Assembly: GCA_044892525.1 (NCBI GenBank)
Contig: CM097885.1
Coordinates: forward strand, 226,424,001-226,488,000
Source: Schmidtea polychroa
Lineage: Eukaryota
Direction: 5' to 3'
DNA length: 64,000 nt
Shown here: one piece after another, positions 14,277 through 39,339 of the stretch
Numbering within the stretch: the first letter of the stretch is position 1
Layout: each line of letters begins with the position of its first letter
Translations under genes and position numbers: made by a program
The notes under the pieces: generated by a model
What the model was told of the DNA's origin: nothing
What the model saw: the letters and a program-made list of their open reading frames with translations, nothing else
The model's database searches: none

Positions 14277-14664
14277 TGTTGGGCTGAGTCGAAGGGTAGT
14301 TGGGAAATTAGGGCAAACTTAACTAAAATAAAATAAAAAATAAAAACAAATAAATTGACAAATAAAATAGAATAAAACATAAGAAAAACAATAATTAGAA
14401 AATAGGAATTAAAACAAAAAATATAAAGATGAGAAAAAATTAAAATAGGACAATAGAATGGCGGAAAACAACGTAAAATATAGTAAATAATAAGAAAATT
14501 AAGGAAAATAAATAAAAACATAATTTTAATAAAGAAAGTAAGAAGAAATAACTAAAAAAACAAGGAAAATAAATTAAATTAATAAAATTAAGCGGTACTC
14601 AATTCTAATTGGTCCGCGCAAACAAAAAATTAATATATAAGCAGGCATTAAAAACATAACAATT

Positions 14665-14741
14665 ACTGTTAATCAAACCACCTCAATAGGTAAGTGAAAT
14701 TTAAACAATACCACTGTTAATCAAACCACCTCAATAGGTAA
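14665..14741. repeat. 29-bp direct repeat ACTGTTAATCAAACCACCTCAATAGGTAA in the LTR (enhancer-like duplication; also in the 3' LTR)
   Basis: Copies at 14665-14693 and 14713-14741. Confidence 0.85.
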
Positions 14742-17112
14742 ATCTATTCTACGACAGAACAGAACTCCAGCAACTAACGCACGATAACTCACGAGGACAA
14801 TTCCAAGATTCAAGAGATTTTTACAGAACTAGACGATATTCGAGCATTAACTGATTCGACATAGTACCCTTTTCGACTCAGCCCATACTTGTATCAATCA
14901 TTCGGTAAGGATTTTTGATTGCTTATTTTGAATTTTTAAGTAATGCGTATAGTTTAATAATATTTTTAATTTAAAAAAAATGGTTTTTCTTTTCGTTTGA
15001 TTTTCGAATGCTTTACTTAAATTAATAATTTGCTTAATAATAAATGATTTGCTCGTTAAGAATTATTGATCTTTTATGAATTAATTTGTATGAATTATTG
15101 GAGACTATTCAATTTTGCGAGAAACGTGGCGTTGAGATACTCTATGTCATGGTGTGAGGTGCCTTCGGAAGCTCCACCGGTGGACATAGGGTATTTCAAT
15201 CACGCAGCTAGATTGGGCCGAAATGTGAGGGCTTCTTCACGGGTCCAATTGCTGAAGGTGCGACTAAAATCTATAGGTAGATGGTGGCAGAAAATTGATA
15301 GTCATGTAGTGATTGAAAACAAAGATATGTAAGAAAGGAATCGGGGAATTTTGATGTATTCGCGCAGTGATTGAGGGTGTCACACTATCGTTTTCGAATG
15401 TCGTGTTTGCTAAGAAAAATTTTTTCTCCATCATCAATGTAAGTTGTGCGTCAAAAAGTGTTCAAACCTTAGTGAGGCTATCTGTGACATATCTTCGATG
15501 CTCACACTTTTCACTCAGAATCTGTTCCGACCAATTGTTAGCCTAAAACCCTTTGAACTATTATTCCGTTCACCTAAAAGTTCTCTTAAAGACATAGTTG
15601 CAAGGAAGCTCAAAGTAGATTGCTTCAGATAATTATTGGAATTATTCCAAATGACTGTTTACGGATAAATTGTAGAACTACGTAAAATAATTTATTACAG
15701 ATAATTGTTAGAACTTCATAAAACGAGTTTGTTCCAAATAAAATTTTGAATTACATAAAATAATTTACTTCAATTAAATTTTTTTGAATTATATAAAAAT
15801 ATTTACATACAATTAATTATCATAATTACATAAACTATTGGCATCAAATAATTTAACAACAAAAAATGCAACCAATTCGAACCAAGAAAATATATTTCTT
15901 CAAGTTAGCCGATAATCTTGTTAAATACGAAATTCCAGTATTACATGAGGTTGGCAATCCAGCAGAGATAGGAAAAAAATCCTCCAGCACTTAGAGAGTA
16001 GATTGGTAAACTAGGCTTGAGTAATTAAAGACGAAAAATCCACCCTTGGAGCAAGCTATATCCAACATTTGCAATACAGATAATTATAATTTTTCCAATA
16101 ATCCGGTGAGAATTAGTAAATCATCACCATATGCCGTAGAATTGTGAGCGAATACGCGGTGGATAAAATTCTGAGAGAATGCCATCATGCAAACATTCAA
16201 CGCCTGCATTTGTAGTATAATTAAGTGTGTGAAAGCGCACCTTGCATGCGTCACCAGTTGCAGACTTACCTAATAGCCAAGTACAGTAGGCAAAGTCACA
16301 CACGCATCTACTCATGTAAAATTAGATCGAACATGCCAATTAAACTACCGACAGCTATCAGATTTCACCGCTCCGGATTAAGAGTCAATCACTGGGCTGA
16401 CATTACCTTATCTACCCAGCAGGTATGGTCGACTACTAGCTCACACTGATACCGTGCTCAGTTGTTATAAAGACACTAATTTTTAATGATAAACTCGATC
16501 ATAATTATGATTATTCTCTCTTTATTATCTTAGCATGAATGGCACCGAAATTATTTCATTTTTTGACATAGTTATCATTAATATTAATATCGAATATTGT
16601 TAAATAAATATTATGTAAACCAGGTAAAACATATGTGAGTAATTAAAGAGAATGAATAAACAATTAAAAATTTAAATAACCTTCCGTTTATCCTGTAGGA
16701 ACTAATCAACAGGCATTATGGACCCCTTTTCCATAGATAGTCACTCGACCCCAGTATATGATACACTCATTAAAAGCACTCGTACGGGGGGAGAAGTCGA
16801 CAATTTAAATCGATTCTCGGTAAACGTGAAATAATGACTCCAAGCGGATTAAATAAATAATCATTTTCATCGACCTAGAATTTCTCTCACAAATAGTAAT
16901 ATCTTCCTTTTCCTTGTGCGAAATCTGGTTTGATCGATTTATCTCCTTATAATTAAAGCCCCGAAAGGGTACGAGAATCCATCGCGTAGTAGAACTTGTC
17001 TTGACTGGTAAACCCATATTTTTGTCTATGATCAGTACAGTATGAATGTAGTCAGATGGTGACACTCCCGCTGATTTAATTATTTTCATTTTCTTTTTCA
17101 CAGTCGCTCAAA

Positions 17113-17706
17113 ATGTTGCCAAATTCCAAGCCCGTTCTTCGACCTTGTTTTTCTTGCTCCGAGAGTCGGGCGCAGAGGAGCCTAATAAAAGAGCAGTCGG
17201 AGGCGCTGCACAAATTATACGTCCAGGCAGCAACTACAAGGAAGATCGCGAAGATCCCAATAAATGAAGCCAGTAACCTTTTCCCAGCACATCATGATAT
17301 CTCTGGCGGGTCTTCTTCTCCAGTCGGAAAGTCCTGCCATGGGTGCGTGGAGACCGAGCTCTCACCTAAAGAACCAGAAATCATCTTTACCGGAACCAGT
17401 AAAGTGCTACCTGCGATAGCATCCACCTCAGCAGCACCCTCGACCAACCAAACAGCATCGAAGCCAAAGCGTCGGCAATTATCGAGAGCAGAACGAAAGA
17501 AAAAACAGCGGGAACGCATAACCGCCAAACAGAACCAGAAATCGTCGGATCATCCAATCAAAGTCATCAACCCTCCTGCAGCAATCGATTTAGCATCAGT
17601 GATCTCAGGGCGAATCATCTCCGCCGCTGGTGTTACCTGGGAGGAAAACGCCTCTGAGTTTTTCGATTTGGAAGATCTATTGGCAGACTCGGAGTGGGAG
17701 AAATGA
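17113..17706 (+). CDS. LTR-encoded ORF, 5' LTR copy (197 aa, lacking 52 aa in frame)
   Basis: Identical to 43110-43859 except for a 156-bp in-frame deletion. Preceded by the acceptor-like TTTTCTTTTTCACAG (AG 17102-17103) and followed by AATAAA at 17841. Confidence 0.6.
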   Translation: MLPNSKPVLRPCFSCSESRAQRSLIKEQSEALHKLYVQAATTRKIAKIPINEASNLFPAHHDISGGSSSPVGKSCHGCVETELSPKEPEIIFTGTSKVLPAIASTSAAPSTNQTASKPKRRQLSRAERKKKQRERITAKQNQKSSDHPIKVINPPAAIDLASVISGRIISAAGVTWEENASEFFDLEDLLADSEWEK

Positions 17707-18277
17707 GAACTTCCCCGTAAAAAGTCTTCGTTCTTTGAATTGACCTGAACATTATCTGATAACATTTTACCTTGTCTCTTTTCCCGTTGTCGTGGACTTT
17801 ATTGTATAGGTGTTAGATATATTTGTGTGATAATCTTAATAATAAACCATTTTTGTCTGCATACGTTTTTTCTTGTGCCCATCTTAAGACAGTTGAGTTG
17901 AAATTGGTAAATGGTATTGAGAGTCATAAAATCATGAGGAGCATTAGTCAGTTGGTAAACTCAGCTAGAAATATTGCGATGGGGCGACAGAATGAGTAGA
18001 CGTAAGTCCTTCTATCGGCAGTCAGGGTTGGGAAGTCGAGGCCTCAGTAAGGAGTAGTCCGAAGGAGCTGGCTCACCTGCTTACTGGCGTCTCGCCGGCA
18101 TAGCACAGTTCCAACGTGAAGCAATTCACGGGTGCTATGTTGGAGTGTAAGTTATGTACGGGTCCCGCTCGGCGATGACCAAATAAATGAGGGGCGAAAT
18201 CGAGGTGGCATTCATCCTCTAGACTAAAGTTACACTAGAAAGGGGTCATCCGAGTAGTGTACCCGCAACATAATTTT

Positions 18278-18295
18278 TGGGGGCTCAGCCGGGAT
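18278..18295 (+). promoter_or_regulatory. Primer-binding site, tRNA-Pro type
   Basis: TGGGGGCTCAGCCGGGAT lies 7 nt after the 5' LTR and matches the MLV tRNA-Pro PBS TGGGGGCTCGTCCGGGAT at 16/18. Confidence 0.8.
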
Positions 18296-18595
18296 TTAGA
18301 GTGAAATTTCCATTGACTAGTGTAAACTGGATAAGGATGTTATTGAGTGAATTTCTGTCGAATAGAGTGAACTCACCGGGGATCAGTGATTTCAATGGGT
18401 TAGCGAGTGCAAATTGACTAATGCTTATCGAATCTTATTATAAATCACGAATAGAAAATAATAAAATTAAAAATATAAATAAAGCAAATTTAATGATGGA
18501 GAAATAAGATAAAAGCAAAATAATGATAACGAGTTAGAAAAGAGAATGTTTGACGAAACGAAGTCATATATTACTGAAACATTTTTTTTATAGAC

Positions 18596-19081
18596 ATGAC
18601 GGAATTCGTAGACCAGATACAACAACTAATCAACTTCATAAACATCGAGAATGACTCCCTTAAAACGCTGACACAAAAAAGAGAAAGAATTAACATCATA
18701 CTACTTCAAGCAATCGGGCAAACACCAGTCGTCCCCAACCACATGTTATTAGCCACAGGACTAAGTCACCCAGAGGGGAAGGTAAACCCGGAAACCGTGT
18801 ATCAATGGTATCAAGAGAGATTGAACCACCCAGCATTAAATCTTGATTATCAACGTATAAAAGATCCACTAAATACCATGTCAGATACAATCGAGCGGAA
18901 AATACAAGAAAAACTGACTCTACTACGAACTTGTCGTGCTTGTAAACTTCGTCCTATTCGCGTACTGTTTTTGCCGTGTGGACACCTCAGTCACTGCGAA
19001 GAATGTGTGAACGATTTAAAACGATGTACGATATGTAGGCATGAAATAAAAGAAACTCATATGGTTTATTATGGTGAATAA
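18596..19081 (+). CDS. IAP/MYLIP-type C3HC4 RING protein without BIR (161 aa), putative E3 ligase
   Basis: C-terminal CRACKLRPIRVLFLPCGHLSHCEECVNDLKRCTICRHEI. An acceptor-like TTTTTTTATAG ends 2 nt before the ATG. Confidence 0.85.
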   Translation: MTEFVDQIQQLINFINIENDSLKTLTQKRERINIILLQAIGQTPVVPNHMLLATGLSHPEGKVNPETVYQWYQERLNHPALNLDYQRIKDPLNTMSDTIERKIQEKLTLLRTCRACKLRPIRVLFLPCGHLSHCEECVNDLKRCTICRHEIKETHMVYYGE

Positions 19082-19427
19082 AACTGTTATAGATACAATG
19101 ACATCTATGAACATCAAATTGATACTGACAATTGAATGAGAATGAATGTAATTGTTGTGTGAAATTTTATTAACGTTTTAAATTGTATTTCTATGACGAA
19201 TAAATTTTTGTTGTGAACTGAGTAATTTATGGCTTTTAATTTTATTTTTTTTTATAACTTTGGTTTGGAATCAAACGAAAAGAAAACCGAAATAACGTGG
19301 AATTAGTCCCAATATAGGCTGTAAGGGTATAAACCGAGCCACCTTAGGGCGGTACGTTCTATCATACGATAAAACCAATTGGGAGGGGATAACCGATCAA
19401 CCTAAGTGAGGAGCGTAGGGCGGGGTA

Positions 19428-19499
19428 CCATCGCAAATGATGAGAAGTTTCTGCGGTATGACTGATCACCATGCCAATGTAGAAATGGATCATCGCGAT
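19428..19499 (+). other. Conserved leader stem-loop with palindromic loop (DIS/packaging-like), element 2
   Basis: Loop ACTGATCAC (19461-19469) closed by GGTATG/CATGCC; outer stems TTTCTGC/GTAGAAA, GATGA/TCATC and ATCGC/GCGAT. Confidence 0.6.
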
Positions 19500-19690
19500 C
19501 GTCGTGCGTTTTGAGCAAGGGGGGAAAGGGGACACACTCCCGAGCGGTAAAGATTAAGTCGACAAATTAAAAATAGACAGAGAAAATGGTAATCTTGAGT
19601 AAAAGAAGAAAGAGAGAAGTAGAAGCATGCAGAGTAAAGAATGTTAAAGCCGAGCTGTAAAATAATCCAGCCGGTCAAGGAAACGAAAAC

Positions 19691-20017
19691 TGAGCTGTTG
19701 TATAGTGCCAGCCAGTCGTAAGATCGAGTTGTCGAATAGTCCAACCGATCAGAAGGAGGAAGATTGAGCTGTTGAATAGTGCCAGCCAGTCGTAAGATCG
19801 AGTTGTCGAATAGTCCAACCGATCAGAAGGAGGAAGATTGAGCTGTTGAATAGTGCCAGCCAGTCGTAAGATCGAGTTGTCGAATAGTCCAACCGATCAG
19901 AAGGAGGAAGATTGAGCTGTTGAATAGTGCCAGCCAGTCGTAAGATCGAGTTGTCGAATAGTCCAACCGATCAGAAGGAAGAAGATTGAGCTGTTGAATA
20001 GTGCCAGCCAGTCGTAA
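19691..20017. repeat. 74-bp tandem repeat, 4.4 copies, in the element 2 leader
   Basis: TGAGCTGTTG starts at 19691, 19765, 19839, 19913 and 19987; the units are nearly identical. Confidence 0.95.
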
Positions 20018-21382
20018 AGGCCTAGAAAAGCGAGAGATAGCAGTTAAGCTACAATGAGCTAATATCTGAATTAATAGAGAAAGGGAATATCAAAGCTAGC
20101 TAGAAACAAATTGAATGTAATTACGGAAATTTGAGTTTAGAGAGAAAATAAACGAGCTCGTGGAAAAGATAATAAGATTATAATGAAAAAGGAAAGGGAA
20201 GAAGGAAACGAATTAAAGAGATAATGGAAAATAAAGAATAGGCGAAACGATGATAATGAGTAAAGAGGAAAGTAACCAACTAATTAAAGGGATCCCAGTG
20301 AGGTAGAGAAACTCTACGGAATATTTTTTTGGTTAAACCGGGAAAATGCATTTTATTGGTTCCAGAGTAGAACCGAGCGTAATAATAGTAAATATGAAAA
20401 GTAAAATAGCGACAACAGCGCAAAAGGAATAGGAAAACGAAGGGGGGTAATAAGCAGAGACCGACAACGACCTATTTTTACTATAATTGATAACGAATAG
20501 ATAATTATTACGACTTGATAGATAATTGTTACTACCCCATATAGATAATTTAAAATCGACGAAAAATTCGGGCTGATGGGAGATTATAACCCGCGGAAGT
20601 AATTGCATAAAAAAAATAGGGGAAGCATAAACAGAACCTAAAAGGTGTCTGTGTTCGAACGTTGTTGAAAGAATGATGAAGTCGTGTAAGCAAATGCAAC
20701 ACGAGATCATTTTTTCATTTTAGATATCAAACCAATCCAGTCAACCAAGACAATCCAGAACCTGCACAAAAGGAATTCGAAGAAATCGACAATCGACCAA
20801 GAATAAATTCATTCAGAACCCGCACCGAGAGACACAGCAACCGGAAGACTCCAGAACGGAAGAAGATACAGATAGCGATATCTCCAACTTCGAACGAATC
20901 ATCGATATATTCAACCTTATAATATTAGCAGCCATCTGTCAAGGACTAGTGAATCTCCTCAGAATCACAGTAGCAGATCCATACAGAATATTTATCGAAG
21001 GAAACACAATCAGAACCGAACTCGTCCAATTCAATAGCCGCTAATTACCAAGAAGCGTAAGAAAGGAATCACGGATAAACCCAATCTTAGATCTTCAAGT
21101 AAGCCAGGAGACGTATTATTTTCAGGAGACGAATTACAACAACTCAAAAGAGGACGATCTATTAAACAGCAAAGAGGAATATCGCAAGGATCAAGAAGAA
21201 CCAATCAAGTACCTATATTTGACCAAGAAAATCTCGGATACACCCCTAGTCGATCTCGAAGCAGAGAAAGTCTGTCCGACATCACTAATAGTTTAGCAAC
21301 GTCAACCGAGGAATTATCAGCCCAAAGTTTAGTCACATCGTTAGACAATTTAAAAGAAACAGACGAATCTAGAACACCAATC

Positions 21383-24300
21383 ATGACGAATGTCGTAAAA
21401 ACCGACGAGTATAAAGAGAAGTTCAGAGGAGAACCGTTCAACGGAAATGCAAACAAGCTAGCACCGTTCATAACTAATTTTGAAGTTTATATCACTGTGT
21501 GTGGATGGACACCCGAAGCAATTAGTAAAAGGATGCCGTTGTTTTTGTGCGATAGCGCATTAGAAGTATATTTAGAAGCTAAAGAGAGAGATACGAAATT
21601 AGAAAAGTGGGAAGATATCAAAACATTCCTGAAGAAAACCTTCGGAGCCAGTAAGCCAGTCAACCAGGCGTTGGGCGAACTAGCAAATAGGAAACAAAGA
21701 GTAAACGAATCGATAACATTATACGCCAGTGAATTGCGGAGATTAGCGAAGAAAGCAATGAATGGAAAATTACCCGAAGAAAATCTGATCGGTTATTTCA
21801 TAGAGGGATTACGCCGAGAAGAAGTAAGAGCCTCAGTAGGTTGTCAAATGTGCAAAACATTAGAGGAAGCCATAGATTGGGCTACAAGATGCGAGCTCCA
21901 CCTTCCAGCTCAAATGAATATTATGCAAGAGGAGGGAAGGATAGCGACAGCAATAGCGAAAGCGGATAACGGAGATAACAACAATCAAGAACTGAAAATG
22001 AATCAATTTATACCAGGAGCGCACCAAATTTTCAAACCACCACAAGGACGATCAAATGGGAATAATGGTAATCGTAACAACCTAAATAATGAGAACAATT
22101 TCAATAATCGACGAAATATGAACGATAACAAGCAGTGCCGAACATGCGGTAAACCAGGACACTGGGACAGAGATTGCTATAGAAATTCAAATTGTAATCG
22201 TTGCGGACGGCGTGGACATACCGAAAATGTATGCCAATTAAGAGGTTGTTTTAACTGTGGTCAGCCAGGTCACATCTCCAGAGATTGCCGAGAAAGGGGC
22301 CAACAACAACGACCACCACCGCGAAATAATAATTATATGGCGAATCCGCAAAGACAAAACAACCCTAGCGAAGGAAAACAAATGAACGTTATGCAGGAAA
22401 TCTCGCAGATGAAACAGATGATGCAACAAATGATGAGACCGAGACCGGAATCAGCACCACAACAAACCCAGAATATACGTATGATGAGGAGTACCGAAAA
22501 TCTCAACAATTATGAAGTGCATCAACATGTACAAGAATGGCAAAGACTACAGGCCGAGGAAGAGAGGATAAAACAAGAACGCAACCAACAACGACAAGAA
22601 CAACCATTGCGAATTAATATGATGAAGTTAGTAAAAGACATGAAAAGCCAGTATTGCTACAATTACGGGAAAAACCCAAGGGTAGTACCCATGACTGAAC
22701 CAGAAAAGGTAACAGAAACAACAACGGAAATGAAAACAGAGAATTCAACCACGATTTTAAAAGGAAACCAGAGAATTCAGAAAATATTCTGGAAAAAGAT
22801 AAAAGATAAAATCGAAAAAGAACATAATAAAGCGAAAGCCGAGACAGAAGATGAAAATAACAAGAGCAAGGAACAAACCAGTCAATTAAACCACCAAATG
22901 CTACAAGAATTAGAATCAGAAGAAACAACGATATTCGAAAGAAAGAAACTAAAGAGAGTACCAAGGATGAGAAATTTGCAAATCAATATGATGAAAAGGA
23001 CAAAAGATGTAGCATCGTCAGACGAAGAAGAAGATTATGTAAGTAGTTTGGGGGGAGAAATACTACAGCTAAACGAAATAAGCGAACCTCCAAAAGGGGA
23101 AATCAAAGAGGAAGAAAGCGAAAGCGAGATAACAAGTGGAAGTGAAGACGAGGATATCGAAATAAAGTTGAGAAAAGCAAGGGAGGAAGCGATAAAACAG
23201 GTAGCCGAAATACTCCCGGCGGTAGTGAGAAACCAAGAGTTCATCGACGTAATATCATTCAGGCGATTCGTGCAAAAAGTGATGAAATTGGAAAGAAACG
23301 AGAAAGATTTAATACCAAACGAGGAAAAATCAATTATAAAAAAGTATATGGAAAAAATGAAGCAGGCAGATACCACGCGGTATGTAATAAAAATCGGAAC
23401 GAGTAGAGGACTTGAAAGAATGTGGATAAAAAATACAGTCACCGACGAACTTTTCGATTGGATACGAGAACATTTGGGAGATTCGAGAAAGAAAGAATAT
23501 CTGTATCAATACCAAGGAGAACAGATCAAACCAGACATGCACTTAGTAGATGCACTAATATGGCCAGGAGAAACGCAAATACTGAAGTTGCATAAAGAAA
23601 AACAACCAGCCAACCTTTACGATTGGGCTAAAGACGCCAAGGCAGAATATGATTTTAATATCAAATTGAAATTAGAACAAATAAAACAATGTACTCTGAG
23701 ACGAAACCTGGATAAGCTGATCAAAAAAATTCAAGAACAAGTAGAAGACAACTGGGATTTACTCATCACCAGACGAGCCCCAGCCATGTACGAACTAATG
23801 ACCCAATTGCGAGATACAGAAATGCTCCGGATGAGTGATTGGAGAACCATAAATTTGATCCACAAATATGGAAGGTTAAAAGAAACCCAGCCACAGAGGT
23901 TGGAAATAACCATATGGTTACCGAACGAGGAAAAACGACGAATAAAAATGAGCAATCAGAGTACAGTGGATGACTTGGTATCAAAAATAAACCAAGAGAT
24001 AACAGAAAAGGTACGTAGCGAAAGTATTGATGGTATGGTGGATGATGTAGTCATGATGTACGATAAAATAATATTACGAGCGGAGGACGACACCTCGTTA
24101 AGCGAAATGGGTATGTGGGACAATCATCAGATAATCAGGATAGTACCAATGGATGAATTTCGAACAAGAGATGTAACCTATCAAAAAGAAATACGAGACC
24201 GGATGAAAACGTTATATCAAAAATCTACGGAAATAATTAAAATCCACCAACAATGGTTAAAAGAAAAAGAACTACAAGGAAAAATCACGAAACTAAGCAC

Positions 24301-26428
24301 CAGATCCTGCAGACGAACCCCATGGGAAAGAGTGTGGAATGCAGAAAATAAGGAATGGGAAATCCGGAAAGGGATCTTCGTAGAAACAGACATTGGTGAG
24401 ACAGAAAGTGAATCGGAGGAAGAAGAAGAGGAACCTCCAGAATATGAAGAGGAAGCAAGGGTACAGACATCAGATGACGAAGGCGAGACGGATGTCACAT
24501 CAGAAAGCGAAAATGAAGCGAGACATATTCATGCAATGAGGAAAAAGGAACGTGAATATGCTGATATGGACGGCGAGGAAGCAATAGAAGCAAGAGAGCG
24601 AGAAGAGAAAGAAAGATATAAACAATTAGGCGATATTTTAGCAATGGGAGCGAAAAATCAAAAACGCCAGGTAGTAGCGTTGGCTAATATCATCTTAAAA
24701 ACATCAGAGAACATCCACAATCTGAGGGGAATGGCAAAGGCAATAGAGGAATACCGGCAATATAATGAATGGTATCCAGAACAGCTAGAACAAATTATTC
24801 GAAAATGGAGAAATCAGGAATGGGCACAAGACACTCAGGAGAGGTATCACATCCGAATCAAGTATCCGGACAAGAGCATCGAGGAACTAGAGGTGCATCC
24901 AACAACAAAGATTAGAGAATTAAAAAAGAAATTAGCATATGAAACTCCATTCCATCTGCAACTATTCGGAAAATCACTAGACGATAATGCAGACGTCGGA
25001 ATAACACCCATGAGATTGGAAGAGACAAATGTGTTAACAATGGCAGAAACGTTGGGAAAGCCGTTAAAAAGGAAAAGTAAAATTACTAAACTAACAAAAG
25101 GCAGTTTGAGTACTCCAAGTCCGAACAAAGCACCAAGTAAATCTAATGAAACTGAAGAAGTTGAAGAGATAATCCTGGAAGATAGTGACGATGAACCAGG
25201 AGAAAGATCACCGCTATTAGTGAGATGGCCGACAGGAGCCGAAATGTGGACTAATAACCAGCCATCAACGAGTTATCAACAACCAACGAAACTGAACATC
25301 AAAGAAATCATCGACAATACTACGGAAACCGAAACGGATGAACAATTCCAGAAGCAAAGAGAACCAACGAAAGTAACACCAGAAGGTCAAACCGATAAAA
25401 TAATAGACGAATGGAATGAGTGGCTAAGAAATAACGATAGCTCATTACCCAGAACGGACAACGAAAGAAATCCGAATTACGAAAATACCAGAGAAGCCGG
25501 AACGATGATGGAAAAACGGGCAAAAGGAAGACCTAAGAAACAAGGAGAAAAGTCTGAGTTCAAAACCAAAGAACAATTAAAGCAAGAACAAGGGCAAGTT
25601 CGATTAGAAAAATTGGATAAAATAGTATGGGATCTAAAGGAAGCCCAACCAACGACCGAAAGAGGAGAAAAATGGATACGAGAATTGATCAAAGATATGT
25701 TAATAATAACAAACCCACAACTTAGACGTTCGTGGCAACGGAAAGTAGCCAGCACGGAAGCTAGACAATTATGGCACACCATTTCGGGGATAATCCCAAA
25801 GTTAATCAAAGAGAAAACGAAAACCACCAAAACGGATTGGGACGAAACAAAGAGAGTGATTGAGCAGCTCACGACAAATGCAAATGATGACGAACATCAT
25901 CTAGTGGTAATCACTTATTTGATGTATAATTTGATGGGACTAGCTGCGAGGAAAATACCAAATAAACAGTTTGCAAATCATGTGGAAATGACCGTTTCAA
26001 TCATAGAGAATACTATTGAACCACATATTATTCGTGCCGGAGGATGGAAAAGACTTATACAAGCGCCACGAAAAAATGAGCAAGAAAGGTCGATGCAAGT
26101 TAGATTGAAGAAGTTGTTGAATGAACTAGAATGGGAACTACCCATGAAAGACCCAGCAAGCCGAAAAGCATCGATAAATTCGTTAATGATGACTATGATG
26201 ATATGGATGTTGTGCACAAGTGGAGCAACAGGTTTTACCATCTACGATTGTGATAATATGATCACCCAACAAATTAGACATAGTAAGAACAAAAGTTACT
26301 TACCATGTATATCAAGAATCAGATTTCATCAGAACGCAAGCAAGGGAATGCGTGGTATCAAAAAAGGTACTCGCATATTACTGTGGACAATATTCGTATT
26401 CGACTCTTATACTACCTGGTCTGGATAA
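21383..26428 (+). CDS. gag: Gag polyprotein: capsid, 3 CCHC, 3 ubiquitin-like folds, Bcl-2-like domain, signal peptide and start of the envelope glycoprotein
   Basis: Capsid motif FRGEPFNGN...ANRKQRVNESITLYASELRRLA. CCHC knuckles at 22136-22288. Ubl-like segments at 23378-23597, 23897-24148 and 24842-25042. BH2-like IEPHIIRAGGWKRLI. Signal peptide ending GATG|FTIYDC. The frame is open from 21038. Confidence 0.93.
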   Translation: MTNVVKTDEYKEKFRGEPFNGNANKLAPFITNFEVYITVCGWTPEAISKRMPLFLCDSALEVYLEAKERDTKLEKWEDIKTFLKKTFGASKPVNQALGELANRKQRVNESITLYASELRRLAKKAMNGKLPEENLIGYFIEGLRREEVRASVGCQMCKTLEEAIDWATRCELHLPAQMNIMQEEGRIATAIAKADNGDNNNQELKMNQFIPGAHQIFKPPQGRSNGNNGNRNNLNNENNFNNRRNMNDNKQCRTCGKPGHWDRDCYRNSNCNRCGRRGHTENVCQLRGCFNCGQPGHISRDCRERGQQQRPPPRNNNYMANPQRQNNPSEGKQMNVMQEISQMKQMMQQMMRPRPESAPQQTQNIRMMRSTENLNNYEVHQHVQEWQRLQAEEERIKQERNQQRQEQPLRINMMKLVKDMKSQYCYNYGKNPRVVPMTEPEKVTETTTEMKTENSTTILKGNQRIQKIFWKKIKDKIEKEHNKAKAETEDENNKSKEQTSQLNHQMLQELESEETTIFERKKLKRVPRMRNLQINMMKRTKDVASSDEEEDYVSSLGGEILQLNEISEPPKGEIKEEESESEITSGSEDEDIEIKLRKAREEAIKQVAEILPAVVRNQEFIDVISFRRFVQKVMKLERNEKDLIPNEEKSIIKKYMEKMKQADTTRYVIKIGTSRGLERMWIKNTVTDELFDWIREHLGDSRKKEYLYQYQGEQIKPDMHLVDALIWPGETQILKLHKEKQPANLYDWAKDAKAEYDFNIKLKLEQIKQCTLRRNLDKLIKKIQEQVEDNWDLLITRRAPAMYELMTQLRDTEMLRMSDWRTINLIHKYGRLKETQPQRLEITIWLPNEEKRRIKMSNQSTVDDLVSKINQEITEKVRSESIDGMVDDVVMMYDKIILRAEDDTSLSEMGMWDNHQIIRIVPMDEFRTRDVTYQKEIRDRMKTLYQKSTEIIKIHQQWLKEKELQGKITKLSTRSCRRTPWERVWNAENKEWEIRKGIFVETDIGETESESEEEEEEPPEYEEEARVQTSDDEGETDVTSESENEARHIHAMRKKEREYADMDGEEAIEAREREEKERYKQLGDILAMGAKNQKRQVVALANIILKTSENIHNLRGMAKAIEEYRQYNEWYPEQLEQIIRKWRNQEWAQDTQERYHIRIKYPDKSIEELEVHPTTKIRELKKKLAYETPFHLQLFGKSLDDNADVGITPMRLEETNVLTMAETLGKPLKRKSKITKLTKGSLSTPSPNKAPSKSNETEEVEEIILEDSDDEPGERSPLLVRWPTGAEMWTNNQPSTSYQQPTKLNIKEIIDNTTETETDEQFQKQREPTKVTPEGQTDKIIDEWNEWLRNNDSSLPRTDNERNPNYENTREAGTMMEKRAKGRPKKQGEKSEFKTKEQLKQEQGQVRLEKLDKIVWDLKEAQPTTERGEKWIRELIKDMLIITNPQLRRSWQRKVASTEARQLWHTISGIIPKLIKEKTKTTKTDWDETKRVIEQLTTNANDDEHHLVVITYLMYNLMGLAARKIPNKQFANHVEMTVSIIENTIEPHIIRAGGWKRLIQAPRKNEQERSMQVRLKKLLNELEWELPMKDPASRKASINSLMMTMMIWMLCTSGATGFTIYDCDNMITQQIRHSKNKSYLPCISRIRFHQNASKGMRGIKKGTRILLWTIFVFDSYTTWSG

Positions 26429-28030
26429 AGAAATCGTATCAATACAACGAGAGGACTGTAAAGAGCTATTTAGAACCGGAGCGCTAAAAATGCATAACGG
26501 AGTGACGATTCACGGACAAACTGGAATGATTAAAACCGAAAGCGTTTATGTATCCGGAAAAGTAAAATCATCAGATGGGTCATGTAACGGAGGTACGTAT
26601 ACGATCCGAGGCGAGGTAATATCGGGAGTAGTAGTGATCGAGTCTTACACGGTCGAATTAAAAGAATACGAAGCGCAATTTGACGCAAATAATTACCAAA
26701 TGAAGACCAACCCAGCGTGTAGAGCTACAGAAAACGTATGTAGGACAGGAGTATCAACTATAATCTATGAAGCTAATACCCAAAAATGCCGACTCCAACT
26801 GTTAAAAAGTGCTTTGTTCAATGAAGTAAAAGGAGAAATATATGAGAACGAGAACGACGAGGATGGAAACGACAGAGTGAGAATGCGAAATGGAAAACCA
26901 ATGCCACCATCTCCCAGAGAAAAGAGACTTTCAACGCAGAAGACACCAACAGCATTAATCACGGACGATCCAGATCTAGGTATGAGATTTATCAAAGAGA
27001 AAGAAACCACCAAATGTGACAGTATAGTATATAAAACCAATTACGCAGGTATCTATATGTCGAGACAAATAATCGATAGAGCAGTGGGAAAGATAGCAAC
27101 GGAGGACGTAAAACTATACTTATATGCAAATAATAAAATGGATTTTCTATTTCATCGCGGACAAACGACCTTGCAAAAAGTATATTACGATCTGATACAA
27201 AACGATTGTTCATTGAATAAAGAAATATTGAAAACAAAGCTAGCTATTGCGATAACACACCCAGATAACACGATGCCATCACTCCCATTACCAGACGGAC
27301 ATTTTGGTAGAATGGTAGGAGAAGTGATGTACACATACCAGTGTACCAAGACGTATGCACGAATGCCAGAAAAATCCATACTACCCGAAAAGAGATGTGC
27401 AAACGAATTAGAAATCCGTTATAAGGGACAAAATCGATTCGTCCAACCAGTCACGAGAATTATGAATCCAGTGGGTTTCTACCCAAATCTCTTTAACTGT
27501 TCTAATGCATACGGACCTTTATACGAAAGACCCGATGGGAAATGGATGATGCTACCGGGAAAAACCATATCCGAGGAACCCAAGAAATTTGGATTAATAG
27601 AACTCGCCACAGAGCTGGATTTCAAACCTATAGACGTGTCAAACGGTGGTATGTATTCCCCAGAAGATCTAGAAACAGCACGACTTAACGTACTCTTCCC
27701 AGCCATACGAGAATCCATTTTGTCAAATATGGTTACAATAACGGGGGGAACAAATTATCAATCAGGCCCGAATTACGAGCTGCTACTATCGCCAGACCAT
27801 TTTCAACAAGCCACATCAAACATGATGAAAGCAATGTGGGGAAGATTCTTAGTTTTTGGACAAATGATGGCCGGAATACTGGGGATCATACTCATAATTC
27901 AGATAGTCAGGGTAATACTAACACAAATGTTAGCTTGTTTTGATATATACAAGCGAGAAAAGAAAGTAAATTGGAAAATGATAGTAGGCTTTTTACCATT
28001 TTTAGCTAAAACCATGGTATTACATGGTCA
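26168..28030 (+). other. env: Chuvirus-G/herpes gB-like class III fusion glycoprotein (split by a frame change near 26260)
   Basis: Signal peptide + YDC; C-V-x6-YYCG; DGSCNGG; NNKMDFL; C.L.KEIL; GEVMYTYQC; RCANEL...FVQPVTRI...C...GPLY; NGGMY; TM FLVFGQMMAGILGIILIIQIVRVIL. Confidence 0.75.
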
Positions 28031-31000
28031 CTCAAAAGACATCCATCGGATAAAGCGATTGATTAAAATCTTAACAAAGATTAAAGGAACAAACGAGGAA
28101 GTAGGTAGACGATTCCGAAAAACCATGTACGATGAAGCAACAAGAAGACAATTGAAAAAGAACAAGCCAAAATTCTTGGACCGATTTAGAAGCCAATCAT
28201 CTAACAGCGATAGTGACGACGATGATAACGGGAACGATAAATGTTTATATCCAAACAGAAACCCAAACGAAAAACCAATGGAAACGGCACCATATTGGGA
28301 AAAGGAAAAGACAAATACCTGGATCGCCAATGGAAGCTATATACCGCCAGATGTCGTGGGACCACAGGCAGCTTTGACCATGACACAAAACATGTATCCG
28401 CAATTACCGAGTCAACCCGGTATGCATTATATGCCAACACGACGTACCAAAAGTGTAGATCAAGCAGATGACGTAAGAACAATAGCAGCGATGAGCTTAC
28501 CTGGAGGTCCAGCAGTAACAGTCATGATTCAAATCAATGGTAAAGAAACCAATGCTATGATAGACACAGGAGCTAATGTATCAGCGATAGCGATTAATCA
28601 AATCCCCAGTAAGCACTGGAAAGATATCGAATCAACAACAATTCACATCATAGCATGTAGTAAAGAAACAGTGGACGTGGTCGGAAGATGGTGGACTACA
28701 TTGAGATACCAGGATAACGAAATCGAAACGTATTTGGCAGTAATACCAAACCTTAGCGTACCATGCATAATCGGAACGGACCTGATGCCGGAATTATTAA
28801 AAGAAGTGGTGATCGATTTAACAACCATGTGTTTAAAAGACAAAACAGGCAGAATATGCAAAATGAATGCCATAATCAGATGTCCAGAGAAAATTGTGGT
28901 ACCAGCAAAATCACAGATGATTTGTCAGATAAAAGTGGATACGGGTATGGAAGGAGAAGTTATCTTTGAACCAAGCAAGTCATTTGAAAAGCGACGAGAG
29001 TTACCACTCGCAAGGGAAATAATCACAATAAACCAAGAAGGAGTGATACCGCTCAACATCACGAATTTCGAAGAGGAAGACAAAATCATTTATGAGAACG
29101 AAAAATTGGGAAGATTGACCCCAATGATGGACATAGAATTACCGAAAGTGACCAACGAGATGATCAAAGATGATGAATTATGGACAATAGATAGTATGTT
29201 GTTGACGAATGATGAAAAGAAAAAATTGCACCGATTGTTGGTAGAATATAAAGATATATTCGCCATCTCAGATTTAGACTTGGGTACATGCGATGTTACC
29301 CTACATGCAATACCCCTCATAGATGAAACTCCAATTGCATTAAGACCATACAAGCTAGCAGAAATGCAAAAAGAAATAGCCGAAGCAGAAGTACAAAAGA
29401 TGCTAGACGCAAAAGTAATCGAACCGAGTTGCTCACCCTGGCAATTCCCAGTGGTCATGGTAAAAAAGAAAGATGGCACCCAACGATTCTGTATCGATTA
29501 TCGGAAGTTAAACGCAGTAACCAAGAGAGATACCTATCCATTGCCGGACATCAATGAAATGTTATTGATGTTGCAAGGGGCAGCATATTTTACTTCTTTA
29601 GATCTAAAAAGTGGATACTGGCAGATTAAAGTCAAAGATGAGGACAAAGAGAAAACAGCTTTCACGCTGGGACGAGATCTATATCAGTTCAGAAAAATGC
29701 CATTCGGACTGACCAACGCACCAGCATCATTTCAAAGGTGTATGAACTTCGTCACGCATGGAATCAAACAATGTATGGTATATATTGATGATTTGCTAAT
29801 CTATTCAGCGACATTCGAACAACATCTGGAGGATATCCGAAATGTATTTATTAGATTAAGACAATGGAAACTCAAGCTCAAACCTTCGAAATGCGATTGG
29901 GCAAAGGAAAAAGTCACGTTTTTAGGACACATAGTGTCAGCTAAAGGAAAGGAGCCAGACCCAAGAAACATTGAGAAAATAAAAACATGTCCAGCACCGA
30001 AAACTGTCACCCAAGTTCAGGAATTTCTAGGATTATGCGGATACTATCGCAAATTTATCAAAAATTATGCAGGAATTGCAAAACCAATCCAGGAATTAGT
30101 AAAGAAGGACATTTCGTTCATTTGGGGGAAGGAACAACAAGAGGCGTTCGAAACGCTGAGAGATAAACTAATCGAAGCACCTATCCTCGTACACCCAGAT
30201 TTTAAGAAGCCATTTCTATTGGCAACGGATGCAAGCGGGTACGCGGCAGGCGCGATTCTGGGACAATTAGACGATGAAGGAAAAGAGAGAGTAATCGGGT
30301 ATTACAGTCGAACATTCAAAAAGCACGAAAAGAACTATTCGGTAACAGAACGAGAAGCATTGGCTATAATACAAGCTATCAAACACTTCCGATATTTACT
30401 ATGGGGACATGAGATATGCATAACCACAGATCATCAACCATTAGTGTGGTTAGGGCAACATAAAGAAGCGTCCAGTAGACTGATGAGATGGGCCATGCAA
30501 TTGCAAGAATACTCCCCATTTATAAAATTCAAAGCAGGAAGAGCAAATGCCAACGCCGACTGTATGTCAAGATTTATTTTTCCAGATTTGGTGGATTCAG
30601 AAATGCAACGCATATGCTTAATAGTAGCGGAAGATTTGGATTTCTGTCAATTGCGAAAAGACCAACAAGGGGACGCGGAATTAAAACAAATTATCGATTA
30701 TGTAAAAACCGGAAAGACGGATGCATATGCGAAAGACCCAAAATTAAAAGAACATATGGATAAACACCGACACCGATATATTATAGAAAAAGATTGGTTG
30801 CTGATAATGGATGGAGAGAAGAGGTTAATGTGTATACCGGAAAACCGACGAAAAGAGTTACTAACGCAATATCACGATGGGAGATTGGGAGGACATATGT
30901 CATCGAAAAAGACGTTAGCAAGAATGAAACAGAAATATTTTTGGCCTACGTTAACTGAAGATGTAACCGAATGGGTAAAAAATTGTCTAACTTGTGCAAC

Positions 31001-34000
31001 CAGGAAGAATACTGGATCGAAATGGAAAGCACCTTTAACGCCAATGCCAGTACCAATAGAACCAATGACAATGATATCAATGGATGTAGTCGGTCCATTG
31101 CCAGAATCGGATAAAGGAAACGTTTATATTCTAGTGATTACAGACTTTCTCACGAAATTTCCAGAAGCATTCGCGATGCCAGACCAAAAAGCTAAAACAA
31201 TCGCAAAAATTTTGGTAGAAGAGATATGTTGCCGATATGGAACACCAAAACAAATATTAACCGATCAGGGAACTAATTTTATGAGTGAGATAATGAGCGA
31301 AGTAACAAATTACTTCAAAATAGCAAAACTAAGAACATCTCCATATCACCCTCAAACCAATGGGATGACGGAAAGATTTAATGGAACGCTTATACAAATG
31401 TTATCAAACTACGTCGACCGTCACCAACGAGATTGGGACGAATATATAAACCTATGTCTTATGGCATACAGAATGTCGATTCACGCATCAACAAAAATGA
31501 GCCCATTCAAATTAATGTACGGAAGAGAATGTAATATGCCAATGGACCTGGAATACCAACCACCGATATCGCAGTATATGGAGATCGACGATTATGTTAC
31601 GAAATTCAAGGAAAGGATGCAAGAAATTTGGGAAACTGCGGGATTAAATATCAAGTTCTACCAGGAAAGTTATAAAGATTTACACGATCGAAAGAAAAAC
31701 GTGAAGCAACATACGTTTCAAACAGGTGATTGGGTAATGATAGAAACCCCGGAATTAATTCCAGGAACCACAAGAAAATTACAACGGAACGGAAAAGGGC
31801 CATATGAGATCCTATTTGTAGGCGAAACCAACGTTAGAGTGAAGTTGATAAATAATCCATTCACCAGGCCAATATACGTAAACGTGGCACGATGTAAATC
31901 AATTCCAAAAACCGCCACCAGTCAACCGGAAGGTCGAACATTAACCACACGTTCGCAAACATACAGAATGAACATGATGCAACAACTCGCAGAACCTATC
32001 CCTGGACGATCGGGCATACAACCATCGGAAGCGGAAAAAATCGTACGAGAGGTAAAGATAAAATTACCCGGATGGGCAAAAGATCGATTAGATTTCGAAA
32101 TATTAGGAGGATTATTGACGATGATCGAAAACTATGCAAATAGAGAAAGGACACACCCGTTATTGCGAGTAGTTAAAAGTCAATGGCCAATATTATTTAC
32201 AATAACGGATCATTATGGAGACACACCATTACACAAACTCATGAAAGTAGGTAACAACGAGCAAATACTAGAAACAATAGAAGCATTTCACGACTGCAAG
32301 CGATCAACAGAACAAGAAAACAACCAAGGTTACACACCATTAATGATAGCAGCAAACAGAGGCAAAACCAAAGACATTATAACCGCATTACTTGATACGG
32401 GATCAAAAATAACTACACAAGACCACGAGCGGAAAAATGCACTACATCATGCTATCGAAGGGAAAAGTACCGAGGCGTTCACGTCATTGATGGAACTACT
32501 ATCATATGAGGACAATCGAGAAGTCGGAAACATGTATGAGGGATTGTTAACAGCGATCAAAGAAAAACTGACGACAATTACCGGAATATTAATTACATGG
32601 AGAAATCCAATTCAAAACGATTATATGATCAACGTAAACGAAGCGTTCACGAAAGGAGAGAACACGCTGATGAGAGAAGCTATGAAAGGACATCATTTAT
32701 TCGAAATTCCGAATCAATTACTAGAACGAGGGATAAAATTCACAAATCATAAAGATGAACAGTTAGCAAAAAAGCGAATCGACACATTCGAAAAATCAAT
32801 ATTCCAATTTACTAGCCAAGTACGAAATAAATATTGGGAAACGGTAAGTGTGTTATATATGATGGACACAATGAATAACATCCGCGAGAATTACCTGGAT
32901 ATTATCCAAATACTTACAGCAGAGGAACGAATCAATAATCCAAACGGAAAGAAAACGAAAATAAGGTATGAGAAACCGAGGGAATCAAAGTCAACAACGA
33001 ACCAAACGGTCACAAACCACGTCATTGAAACAAAATCAATGAGTATAGATCAAGAGGCAATAATACGCAAAGCAAAAGAAGTGTTCTTTGAGGAAATGCT
33101 AGAGCTGCCAGACGAAATAATATTGTCCAAAATAATAAAAGCCGTACACACATACGCAAGAGATCAAACCACGGGTTTAGATATCGGGAAAATCAAAACC
33201 TTCTTGCCTCGAGCATTTACGATGGTAACAAAGGATTCCCGAACACCTCTACAACAAGCAATATTAGCTGCAAAAGAGAATAGAGCAATAACGATCATGA
33301 GAATCCTTGGGGAGATGGGCGAGGAAACCAACACGAAAAATGAACAAGGTGAAACCGCCATGATGTATGCAGCTATAACGAAAATACACCCAAAAACACT
33401 CCACATCCTACATCAATCAGGATCGAAACTAGACGAAAGGTCCAATGAAGGAAATTCCACCTTGGACTGGGCAACCATACAACTAAACTTAGAAATGATC
33501 AGATTTATTTGCAAAAATGCGACAAAAGAAGAAGTTGAAAATATGTGCAAAAACACATCTCAGTTTCAATGGAATACGGTACGGAAAAATCTAGAAGCAA
33601 TGAAATTATTATTAACCTGGAGAGTACCACAAAATAATAAATATGCGATAAATGTAAACGAATTCTACGAAAACGGAGAAAATGCGATGGTAAAGAATAC
33701 CCTAACTAAGGGGGGGACGCCTAAAATTATTTTAATAGTATTAAATAGAGAAGACCTAAAATTCACGCAAAATCAGAACGAGCAACAACGAATTGGGAAA
33801 CATCGTCGTATGCAATTGAGAGAGTTAGTTAAAGAATGGAATAGAAAGAGACATGCTGCAACGGGTAGAAAAGAGTTTGAATTCGAAGCAAAATTAGCAA
33901 GAAACAGAGTGCTAACAGCATATCGCAGATTATTGAACGATATAAATGTCGAGGACGACATTTTAAATGACAGCGGGGGAGATAAACACGATGACAATGA

Positions 34001-35186: not shown

Positions 35187-35346
35187 AAAGGAATATGACT
35201 GTATATAATTGTAAAAAGTAAGTATATCTTATGTATATAACAGTACTATATCTTTATATAAGCGCGGTATCAATATTATACAATAACGGGAATCATAAAA
35301 TGACATTAAATTTAAATAAGAGTTGAAAAGTGTATATAAATTAAGA

Positions 35347-35706
35347 ATGGATCAAGGAAATAACGAAATGAACCACAATACAGTAACTGAAGAATTATGG
35401 AAGCAACAATGTGCCGTATTAGCACAATTAGTGTCCAATTTGCAAGAACAAGGATTGACGATGCACAGAAACCTAATCGAGAGTATGAATAGAGGATTTA
35501 GTTATTTGAAAATAATTGAAGACCAGAGGTTGAAAATCGAACAAATGCAAAGAGAGATAGAGAGGATAACCCAATATAGCCGTAGACAGGAAATCGAGCT
35601 AGACAGAATGATGGAGGAAGCAGAACAGACAGAAATAGAAGACTGGTCGGAATGGCTAATGAATAGAGAGGAGAGCGGACACGAAGCCGACTCTTCCGAA
35701 CCCTAA
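35347..35706 (+). CDS. Small coiled-coil accessory protein
   Basis: ATG at 35347 within the track ORF 35323-35706; heptad-like Q/E/R-rich; homologue in element 1. Confidence 0.65.
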   Translation: MDQGNNEMNHNTVTEELWKQQCAVLAQLVSNLQEQGLTMHRNLIESMNRGFSYLKIIEDQRLKIEQMQREIERITQYSRRQEIELDRMMEEAEQTEIEDWSEWLMNREESGHEADSSEP

Positions 35707-35791
35707 ACCAAACCTAGCTTAAAATGTAAATAATTGTAAATAAAATATCGAACCTGTATCGATAAGAACTATTTGTACATATAATTATAGA

Positions 35792-37180
35792 ATGGATAAA
35801 CGACAAAGAGAAGAGTTCAGAGAGATTGTCGAGCAAGTCCGAAAATCTACAACGATCAGAATACACAAACATGTTATGTGCGGAATATGTGAAAAGTTGT
35901 TAAAGGAACCTCACCAAACGCAATGTGGATGCAGAGTATGTAAAGAATGTATCAGTGAAGCAATAAAGAATAGACCACAGAGGTGCCCGGTGTGTAAAGA
36001 GACACTAATATCGAGTTTAGAAGACACTAACGAGGATAAAGCCGCAGTGAAAGACATGTTAAACACCAATCTGGGATGTAAAAATGCCCCATGCGAATGG
36101 AAAGGAGTAATATGGAAGGTAGTACAACATATGGGAGAATGTATGTACAGAATTGGCCAGTGTGAAAGGTGCCATAAAACCATTCGAGCAAGCGAAGAAA
36201 AAGAGCATCAAAGGCAGTGTGAAGAGAGATTAGAAAGATGTGAACACTGTGGAGAAATAGATACGTGGAAAAATCTCACCCTCAAACATCACAATGTCCA
36301 AGAGGAGAGAGTATGTGCAGAGTTCAGTGGGGAATGCCCAAACGGATGTAACCAAGGGGAAATAATGAAGGTGGCACAGCATCTAAGGGAATGCGAAAAG
36401 AAAAGAATGACATGTGTACTAGGTAGATGGGGTTGTCAGAAACTACTACACCGAGGTGAGTTACCACATCATTTAGTAGAAAATGCTTCAACCCACGCAG
36501 AAATGTGGTCGACTGCGTTACAAGAAAGCGAAGAGAAAGTAAAACAAATGGAGATAGAGATAACATCGTTGAAAGTGTTAGTCAAAGAACTACTAGAAGA
36601 AAGGGAAGCGTTAGAAGAAGCCCGAGCAAACATAAAGATGCAAATAAACCGAATAGAAATCAGTAATAATCAGGCCAAGGAGCTACATCAGAAAATACGG
36701 GAAATAAATCTAAATGAGATAACCCCAACAGCACCCTACATATGGAAAATAACGGGAGTAAAAGAAAGAATACGAAAAGCAAAAACCGGAGAAGAGACAA
36801 GAATAACAAGTCCTGCATTCCATTCTTGGAAAAATGGGTACAAAATGAAAATGAAGATATATCCCAACGGGGACGGAACCGGAGTAGATACGCACTTTTC
36901 GATTTTCTTTCTGTTATGTAAAGGGGAATACGACGAAATAATAGAGTGGCCGTTCCAGGCAAAAATCGATATTGCACTAATGAATGACCGAAGCATCCAC
37001 GAACAAAGCTTCAAGACAACTGGAAACCAAATGTGTTACCAGAGACCTACGGCAGAAGAAGGATCAGCAACAGGAGCACCTACGTTCATCCTACAACAAA
37101 AAGTAGAAGATATGGCAAGAAATGACACGGTGTATATCAAGATGACCGTGAGGAAAGAGGAGAAGGGTAGAACGGAGTAA
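35792..37180 (+). CDS. TRAF: Full-length intronless TRAF-family protein (RING - TRAF zinc fingers - coiled coil - MATH)
   Basis: RING CGICEKLLKEPHQTQCGCRVCKEC...CPVC; tandem TRAF-type zinc fingers; MATH motifs YIWKI, SPAF, GYKM, YPNGDG, HFSIF, KGEYD, EWPF, YQRP. Confidence 0.93.
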   Translation: MDKRQREEFREIVEQVRKSTTIRIHKHVMCGICEKLLKEPHQTQCGCRVCKECISEAIKNRPQRCPVCKETLISSLEDTNEDKAAVKDMLNTNLGCKNAPCEWKGVIWKVVQHMGECMYRIGQCERCHKTIRASEEKEHQRQCEERLERCEHCGEIDTWKNLTLKHHNVQEERVCAEFSGECPNGCNQGEIMKVAQHLRECEKKRMTCVLGRWGCQKLLHRGELPHHLVENASTHAEMWSTALQESEEKVKQMEIEITSLKVLVKELLEEREALEEARANIKMQINRIEISNNQAKELHQKIREINLNEITPTAPYIWKITGVKERIRKAKTGEETRITSPAFHSWKNGYKMKMKIYPNGDGTGVDTHFSIFFLLCKGEYDEIIEWPFQAKIDIALMNDRSIHEQSFKTTGNQMCYQRPTAEEGSATGAPTFILQQKVEDMARNDTVYIKMTVRKEEKGRTE

Positions 37181-37373
37181 CCAATCGAATAATGTTGTAT
37201 ATAATAATCTGTATATATCGGTGTATATAACCAATAAAATATTATATAATAATAGTATGAAAACCCTAAATACGAAAACCCAAAAATGATGCGAAAATTT
37301 CCAAAGAAACAGTAGATAATGAATAAATTCCTTTTTCATAATAAAAAGATTAATCGATGTCTATGATTTAGAG

Positions 37374-38429: not shown

Positions 38430-38577
38430 GGGTGAATAAAAAGATAAAAACAAAAATCGGGACGTATATCCCAAACAAAAAAAAAAAAAAAACAAAACAA
38501 AAAAAAAAAAAAAAAAATTTAAAGTATGATAAAAGTATTCAAGGGACTGTAACCCGAACTATTAAAATTTTATATAA

Positions 38578-39339
38578 ATGTATATGTATAAGTCACACTA
38601 TAGCGCACCATTAACTGTACATATTACAGATATGAAAATCGAGGAAATAATAGAAATTACGAGCGACGTAGAAGAGGGAGAGATTGAGGCAGAAACAACA
38701 GAAACACAAACGTTAAAGGCCAAGTTACGGGAAGAGAAGTACGAAAACGAGAGACTAGTAAACAAATATATAGAAGACCGAAAAATGATTAAAATACTAA
38801 AGAAGGAGTGCGAAGCGTTAGGAGAAATAAAGAGAGAAGCTGAAGAGAAGAATGAATGGTTGCAAGAACAAAGAACACGAGGAAGAAACTGGGAAAAGAT
38901 TGCAGAGGAACTATGGCAAGAGAGGGCAAGCTTCAAGGCAGAAGAAGTAATCCAGGATTATTGGAAAACAGAGGCGAAAGAACACCAAATAACTATAAAT
39001 AAATTAAATCGACAATTGGAGGAAAAACAACGAGAAAGTGAGGAAATGAAAAAATGGATTCGCAAGTATCAAGAGATCGAGAGAAAACAACAACAACAAC
39101 AACAACGAAACCTTTCGCAGGAAAACGAACAAGATTTCCTACAAATCGAACTAAAAAGGAATCTCGACAAAAAACGGGAAGAAATTAAGAGACTGAAAAA
39201 GGAGATAAGGCACATGAAAAGGGAGGCCCGTGAAAAGAACAGACAGTTGGAAATGCTGCCCGAGTTAAGACACAGAGTCATTAAAGCGGAATCCACCCTG
39301 ATGAGAATCGCCGAAAATAACCCAAACCAGAATCATTAA
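38578..39339 (+). CDS. Orphan coiled-coil protein (likely start ATG 38632)
   Basis: E/K/Q/R-rich helical ORF; an acceptor-like TTACAG ends at 38629, just before ATG 38632. Confidence 0.7.
   Translation: MYMYKSHYSAPLTVHITDMKIEEIIEITSDVEEGEIEAETTETQTLKAKLREEKYENERLVNKYIEDRKMIKILKKECEALGEIKREAEEKNEWLQEQRTRGRNWEKIAEELWQERASFKAEEVIQDYWKTEAKEHQITINKLNRQLEEKQRESEEMKKWIRKYQEIERKQQQQQQRNLSQENEQDFLQIELKRNLDKKREEIKRLKKEIRHMKREAREKNRQLEMLPELRHRVIKAESTLMRIAENNPNQNH

Follow-up and report, generated by a model that had tools for sequence, protein, structure and literature searches.

Three ubiquitin-fold (Ubl) units, each preceded by a helical bundle, are predicted in the first polyprotein frame of a Burro-type giant gypsy element of Schmidtea polychroa, and sequence alignment and structural modeling indicate that the repeated entity is a ~160-aa module composed of a helical bundle and a ubiquitin fold. 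The element lies in a window of 64,000 nucleotides (GenBank assembly GCA_044892525.1, contig CM097885.1, positions 226,424,001 to 226,488,000, forward strand), by which the whole stretch of analyzed DNA is meant. Our preferred reading, to which we assign a probability of about one half, is that these tailless ubiquitin-fold domains and their bundles are released by the element's protease in two accessory proteins and dock alongside the cargo (MATH/TRAF and Bcl-2-like) in cell-death/ubiquitin signaling. The coordinates are collected in Table 1.

Table 1. Positions in the window of the element, its domains and the bundle–Ubl modules.
Feature	Position	Strand	Details
Module 1 homologue in element 1	4982..5428	+	
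Burro-type giant gypsy LTR element	14277..44423	+	30.1 kb
LTRs of the Burro-type element	14277-18270 and 40274-44423		~4 kb each
ORF1 (P0001), 1796 aa	21038..26428	+	Gag, accessory modules, Bcl-2-like domain, env start
Gag proper	21536..22291	+	Retrotrans_gag aa 167-260, CCHC knuckles to aa 418; Pfam E 3.5e-9, 6.4e-11
Putative protease site, I-N-M-M type, before module 1	22982..22993	+	Kept in family B
Helical bundle 1	23141..23362	+	AlphaFold H3-32, H39-55, H62-76
Ubiquitin-fold unit 1	23378..23597	+	AlphaFold block pLDDT 72-87
Helical bundle 2	23615..23884	+	AlphaFold H161-205, H207-227, H236-250
Ubiquitin-fold unit 2, helix and loop lengthened	23897..24148	+	AlphaFold block pLDDT 81-95
Putative protease site, I-H-A-M, before module 3	24527..24538	+	In family B, MATH lies just upstream of the matching site
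Helical bundle 3	24605..24838	+	51-52% identity to family B; detected together with unit 3 by the profile of other families
Ubiquitin-fold unit 3	24842..25042	+	Sequence profiles
Bcl-2-like domain	25610..26080	+	Five-family profile
ORF2	26262..35186	+	Env-like fusion glycoprotein, protease, RT, RNase H, integrase, ankyrin repeats; Pfam
Accessory TRAF-like ORF, RING + MATH	35744..37180	+	After pol; Pfam TRAF-MATH E 2.9e-26, RING E 9e-5

The element at 14277-44423 ends in TG...CA, has the target-site duplication TTAA, and its two LTRs are 99.9% identical in two blocks. It is a Burro-type gypsy element, an assignment made from architecture and not from identity to the named Burro1-4: the element is ~30 kb long with long LTRs, its Gag carries CCHC knuckles, and the pol domains follow the order PR-RT-RNase H-IN. 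Moreover, the Bcl-2-like domain is followed by an env-like gene and then the protease in one polyprotein (continuous in family B, see below), and the cargo comprises MATH/TRAF, here in the separate ORF 35744-37180, and ankyrin repeats. A preliminary description of this DNA had reported the ubiquitin-like units, but had neither recognized the Burro type nor noticed the helical bundle ahead of each unit. The window copy is broken into two overlapping frames near 26262-26428. Its family is abundant (148 of 820 candidates scored, with 91-100% identity among those scored), and a 4732-aa open frame was counted by eye in approximately 59 of the 148 scored copies.

The Bcl-2-like domain of the window copy by itself gave no match in the Pfam scan, and a five-family profile of ORF1 aa 1525-1681 matched Bcl-2/Bcl-xL at E 1.7e-4. 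Among 150 Bcl-2 genome matches, about 40 (by eye) lie in short frames interrupted by an in-frame TAG, and many of them have near-identical scores (e.g. C1:34775875-34776186); they look like a repeated Bcl-2-like sequence sharing one stop. A RING-finger ORF (18578-19081; zf-C3HC4_3, E 8.5e-12) lies just inside the 5' LTR. Three further ORFs at 37323-39950 showed no significant Pfam match, and no BIR domain was detected in the Pfam scan of 13 proteins (the longer ORFs). Two late-domain-like motifs occur: a PPxY separates units 2 and 3 (24434-24445; P0001 aa 1133), and the tail of env carries a YPxL (~28395-28406; P0002 aa 712). Elsewhere in the window, a 760-bp repeat pair with 81% identity (9808-10554 and 58901-59647) is possibly LTR-related, and a 956-aa frame adjoining the element (49003-51873) carries an NADFDGD motif, which we take to be that of the RNA polymerase largest subunit; the frame is presumably a host gene.

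Relatives were gathered by genome searches with element 1, env and Bcl-2 queries, and 11 stretches were read. The families are denoted A (the window), B (L091-L093), C (L094/L100), D (L095/L097/L098), D' (L099), E (L096/L101), N (element 1) and X (P0006). Ubl modules were found in all six sampled polyprotein families: A and B carry three each, C and E carry two, and D and D' have a single one. In family B, units 1 and 2 lie upstream of a MATH domain that separates them from unit 3, and among the families sampled, B and P0006 were the only ones observed to have MATH in frame. Word-index and full HMMER searches returned one relative outside the genome. Two older relatives of family A were also seen, L123:154-2004 and L125, with 72% and 57% identity; in L125 the match breaks off behind unit 2 and resumes in the linker that follows unit 3, a pattern that suggests a deletion of module 3.

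Element 1, in the same window, has a 1572-aa ORF (2882-7600) with Gag, module 1, bundle 2, a MATH remnant and a polyprotein tail. This ORF has more than 100 close matches, many with an equal frame of 1571-1572 aa. An intact MATH and a Bcl-2-like domain are absent from element 1 and module 1 is retained; it is likely a non-autonomous deletion derivative of family B. The homologue of unit 1 that had previously been noted in element 1 was recovered by tblastx (44-45% identity at 5261-5434; 36% over the unit).

The sequence evidence differs among the three units. Unit 3 matched Pfam ubiquitin at E=0.0026 (17.9 bits, under the 25.4 cut-off) and the PDB by phmmer at E=0.068. Furthermore, a profile built from six units of families C, D, D' and E only scored unit 3 at 18.7 bits, with a best score of 8.0 bits among 500 shuffled and 3 reversed proteins. 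These profiles support a ubiquitin fold for unit 3, and the peptide quoted for it in the preliminary description does lie within ORF 21038-26428 (P0001), position 24842 corresponding to the Arg directly before the peptide. In leave-out profile tests with controls reaching 8.6 bits, the scores were 12.5-15.9 bits for unit 2 and 6.1 bits, within noise, for unit 1; hhalign gave probabilities of 16% and 2%, respectively, and no significant ubiquitin match was obtained for either in the PDB sequence search. The ESM Atlas placed unit 1 near ubiquitin/Rad60-SLD clusters at 0.86-0.88 and unit 2 at 0.90, which serves as a lead only. In addition, a pooled profile of 13 units retrieved the ubiquitin family from the PDB (best single-domain E 1e-9; ISG15 2e-8), and the best 60 of its 392 matches were of ubiquitin/ISG15/ubiquilin type, with no SUMO entry among them. 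A PI3K Ras-binding domain was considered for unit 2 and rejected: Pfam gave only E 0.03-0.13 over the first 42 aa, the genome search gave E 0.28-0.65 in two older relatives, and the Foldseek PI3K alignments had an rmsd of ~20 Å.

The folds of units 1 and 2 were modeled with AlphaFold (window 23135-24220, 12-row alignment, mean pLDDT 82.5). Both adopt a beta-beta-alpha-beta-(beta)-beta arrangement in the model, at residues 83-153 (window 23381-23593) for unit 1 and residues 255-338 (window 23897-24148) for unit 2, indicating a predicted beta-grasp fold for each. The support for unit 2 is independent because the alignment held just its own two homologues under this unit, and that for unit 1 is partly circular because eight alignment rows came from assigned other units; a single-sequence model was poor (pLDDT 37.7). 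The structural check proposed in the preliminary description was thereby borne out for units 1 and 2, but the sole model of unit 3 was of low confidence. With the model of modules 1 and 2, Foldseek returned 233 matches at E<=0.001, including ISG15 (E 1.7e-6), di-ubiquitin (2.8e-6) and PI3K p110 (~2e-6). The alignments were long enough to cover both units, yet their rmsd was 19-28 Å, and we read them as two separate beta-grasp matches in the model. Single viral ubiquitin-like domains were also matched, with a target TM of 0.64-0.72. Taking the models for units 1-2 and the profiles for unit 3 together, the three ubiquitin-like units of the preliminary description are present where it had placed them.

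Ahead of each unit lies a helical segment of 70-90 aa that ends in a similar K-[YFW]-G-type turn, and three helices are modeled before unit 1 and before unit 2. In a MAFFT alignment, 8 of 8 single modules aligned with module 1 end to end, across both bundle and Ubl. Because whole modules align and a bundle precedes each unit, the bundle and the Ubl together were taken as the repeated entity. Bundle 1 shows only 24% identity between families A and B, and our confidence in bundle homology across all modules is moderate. Among the best 60 of 163 PDB rows for the module profile, the ubiquitin-family matches covered the Ubl part only, and searches for the family of the bundle in Pfam (12 bundles, no match) and with PDB profiles gave nothing consistent. 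The TFIIS N-terminal domain (Med26, PF08711) resembles the bundle in its last-helix spacing (hhalign E 0.015, probability 3%). This domain has five helices, compared with three in the bundle model, and 0 of 26 PF08711 genome matches lay within a frame of >615 aa.

Sequence comparisons further showed that the units are clearly under purifying selection. The dN/dS was 0.13 for unit 1 (family B vs. element 1) and 0.11 for the D vs. D' unit, and between families A and B, where dS is saturated, the units retain 40-45% identity compared with 24-38% for most flanks. Among 29 family-A copies, the distinct synonymous:non-synonymous variants, which are not independent events, numbered 12:1, 13:1 and 12:3 for units 1-3, 13:12, 3:5 and 15:7 for bundles 1-3, and 9:10 for the acidic linker; the copy-ranking query contained units 1-2 and bundle 2, biasing the two units toward few replacements, and unit 3 lay outside it. 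By the same counts, bundle 1 is weakly constrained within family A.

The tail and surface of the units differ from those of ubiquitin. None of the three window units has Gly-Gly directly after the last strand, and among 15 units, Gly-Gly occurs near this strand only in family B unit 2, where it is displaced by a few residues and is absent from A and X. The predicted fold and the missing tail agree with the earlier description of the units as non-conjugatable Ubl domains. Across the 15 units, 7-18 of 76 residues are identical to host ubiquitin. In a sequence-based register whose last strand is uncertain, the ubiquitin patch residues are kept in 0/15 (Leu8), 1/15 (Ile44) and 0/15 (Val70) units; the Ile44 position is hydrophobic in units 1 and 2 (Tyr, Met) and Gln in unit 3. 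The conserved positions are mostly fold residues (Leu43, Phe45/Gly47, Leu50, Tyr59 region) and not those of the Ile44 patch. In the available part of one source, the Leu8/Ile44/Val70 patch is described as being used by many ubiquitin-binding domains (PMC4276913).

A motif of I-N-M-M type recurs after the nucleocapsid, before modules 1 and 3, and around the protease and integrase, in places that match between A and B; it was matched by pattern, without statistics, and the third site fits only in family B. The units lie outside Gag proper, between the nucleocapsid and the Bcl-2-like domain, and judging from this layout they are likely part of protease-released accessory proteins. The preliminary description had assigned them to Gag, but the capsid and zinc knuckles stop at aa 418 and the units begin at aa 780. 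If the motifs are protease sites, the element protease would cut near aa 650, 1165 and 1713, and the modules would end up in separate accessory proteins instead of the Gag shell: modules 1 and 2 (plus MATH in family B) would form one product, and module 3 with the Bcl-2-like domain a second. A beta-grasp that is under selection but has neither the tail nor the Ile44 patch is most readily understood as a binding surface for a dedicated partner, and the modules may descend from one ancient capture followed by internal duplication. Cell-death ubiquitin signaling is suggested as their setting because the neighbors are TRAF/MATH, RING and Bcl-2-like, an argument from neighborhood. Along the same line, a RING+BIR protein of Burro1 has been reported, second-hand in the available part of the source, to protect stem cells from apoptosis (PMC13465017). 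A bolder and only tentative version, in which we place rather little confidence, would see the ~160-aa Burro module, captured once and kept in one to three copies per family, as a set of protease-released adaptors that link TRAF, RING and Bcl-2-like proteins to the host cell-death ubiquitin machinery, forming a retroelement-built signaling scaffold.

Alternatively, the modules could work in the particle or replication complex of the element itself by binding Gag/nucleocapsid, RNA or each other, or by aiding polyprotein folding, a role like that of the integral Ubl domains in coronavirus nsp3. No folded unit stands between Gag and module 1, which would be made at Gag stoichiometry; it is also the sole cargo domain that the non-autonomous element 1 keeps under selection (dN/dS 0.13), and every sampled family has at least one module, whereas MATH was seen in frame in B and P0006 alone. 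Against these points stand the range in copy number from one to three, the presence of module 3 in one predicted product with the Bcl-2-like domain and, to our knowledge, the assembly of ordinary gypsy elements without any such domain. We regard a particle role as the main alternative, albeit a rather unlikely one.

The preliminary description had suggested ubiquitin mimicry, in which the units recruit or decoy ESCRT/proteasome ubiquitin receptors during budding. The env-like gene makes budding plausible, and the PPxY between units 2 and 3 and the hydrophobic Ile44 position of units 1 and 2 would fit this idea. It is nevertheless disfavored, and we consider it improbable, because the Gly-Gly tail and the Leu8/Ile44/Val70 patch are missing (with Gln in unit 3, and the patch counts given above); in addition, family B has no PPxY at the corresponding place. 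Least probable is that the units are decayed signals for ubiquitin processing, such as those of pestiviruses or of this genome's BEL/Pao family, and have no present job. Real capture of ubiquitin by that other LTR family and the nearby Gly-Gly of family B unit 2 speak for such an origin, but the low identity to host ubiquitin and the absence of Gly-Gly there in 14 of 15 units speak against it, and the clear purifying selection largely refutes it.

That other LTR family carries ubiquitin close to the authentic sequence at many loci, for the most part in tandem pairs that have Gly-Gly (150 of 1240 candidates scored; 16 loci read, L049, L050, L052-L054 and L056-L059 among them), in frames that we take to contain Rab-like and proteasome-alpha-like fragments and to run into a BEL/Pao-type Gag. 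Its di-ubiquitin ends in Gly-Gly, unlike the tailless window units. Ubiquilin and Rad23 (integral type II Ubl) and ISG15 (tandem Ubl) share the beta-grasp likeness (profile E 1e-4 to 2e-8), and the Ubl domains of ubiquilin and Rad23 are not conjugated. The present units differ from them in lacking the Leu8/Ile44/Val70 patch and from the tandem Ubls of ISG15 in being spaced by ~90-aa helical bundles. Pestivirus insertions, like the BEL/Pao di-ubiquitin, place ubiquitin-family sequence inside a virus or retroelement polyprotein. According to the accessible portion of the source, however, pestivirus ubiquitin is near-authentic and host hydrolases cut after it (PMC8310069), whereas the window units are ancient, divergent and tailless; the earlier analogy with pestiviruses does not extend to mechanism.

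The available text of a review describes for Burro a single Ubi2/SUMO-like motif between MATH and Bcl-2 (Arkhipova & Yushenova 2019, PMC6431247). Burro1/GYPSM1, as far as that text goes, resembles the present element in its ~30 kb, a Gag with three knuckles, MATH, Ubi2/SUMO-like and BCL2-like domains, ankyrins, and an env between Bcl-2 and protease (PMC6431247). The published Burro order, as given there, is found in family B (4773-4791-aa frames) as MATH, unit 3, Bcl-2-like, and unit 3 occupies the position of the published motif because MATH lies between units 2 and 3 in this family. The differences from the portion of the review available are that it names one Ubl motif, compared with three here, each behind a helical bundle, and that the window's family has MATH in a separate downstream ORF. 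In the accessible literature, including PMC8532177 and PMC11410931 on Burro, neither multiple Ubl units nor a bundle–Ubl module was found for these elements. One Burro Ubl motif is already published, which limits the surprise; units 1 and 2 and the repeated two-part module are apparently new.

Burro elements rank among the largest retroelements, and the sources as available report, second-hand, that Burro1 supports the survival of planarian stem cells. Standard domain annotation had left roughly half of the polyprotein blank. With a module that is repeated, under selection and confidently predicted in its fold, domain limits are clean enough to guide expression and pull-down work. The idea of "tinkering with ubiquitination and apoptosis" thus becomes directly testable.
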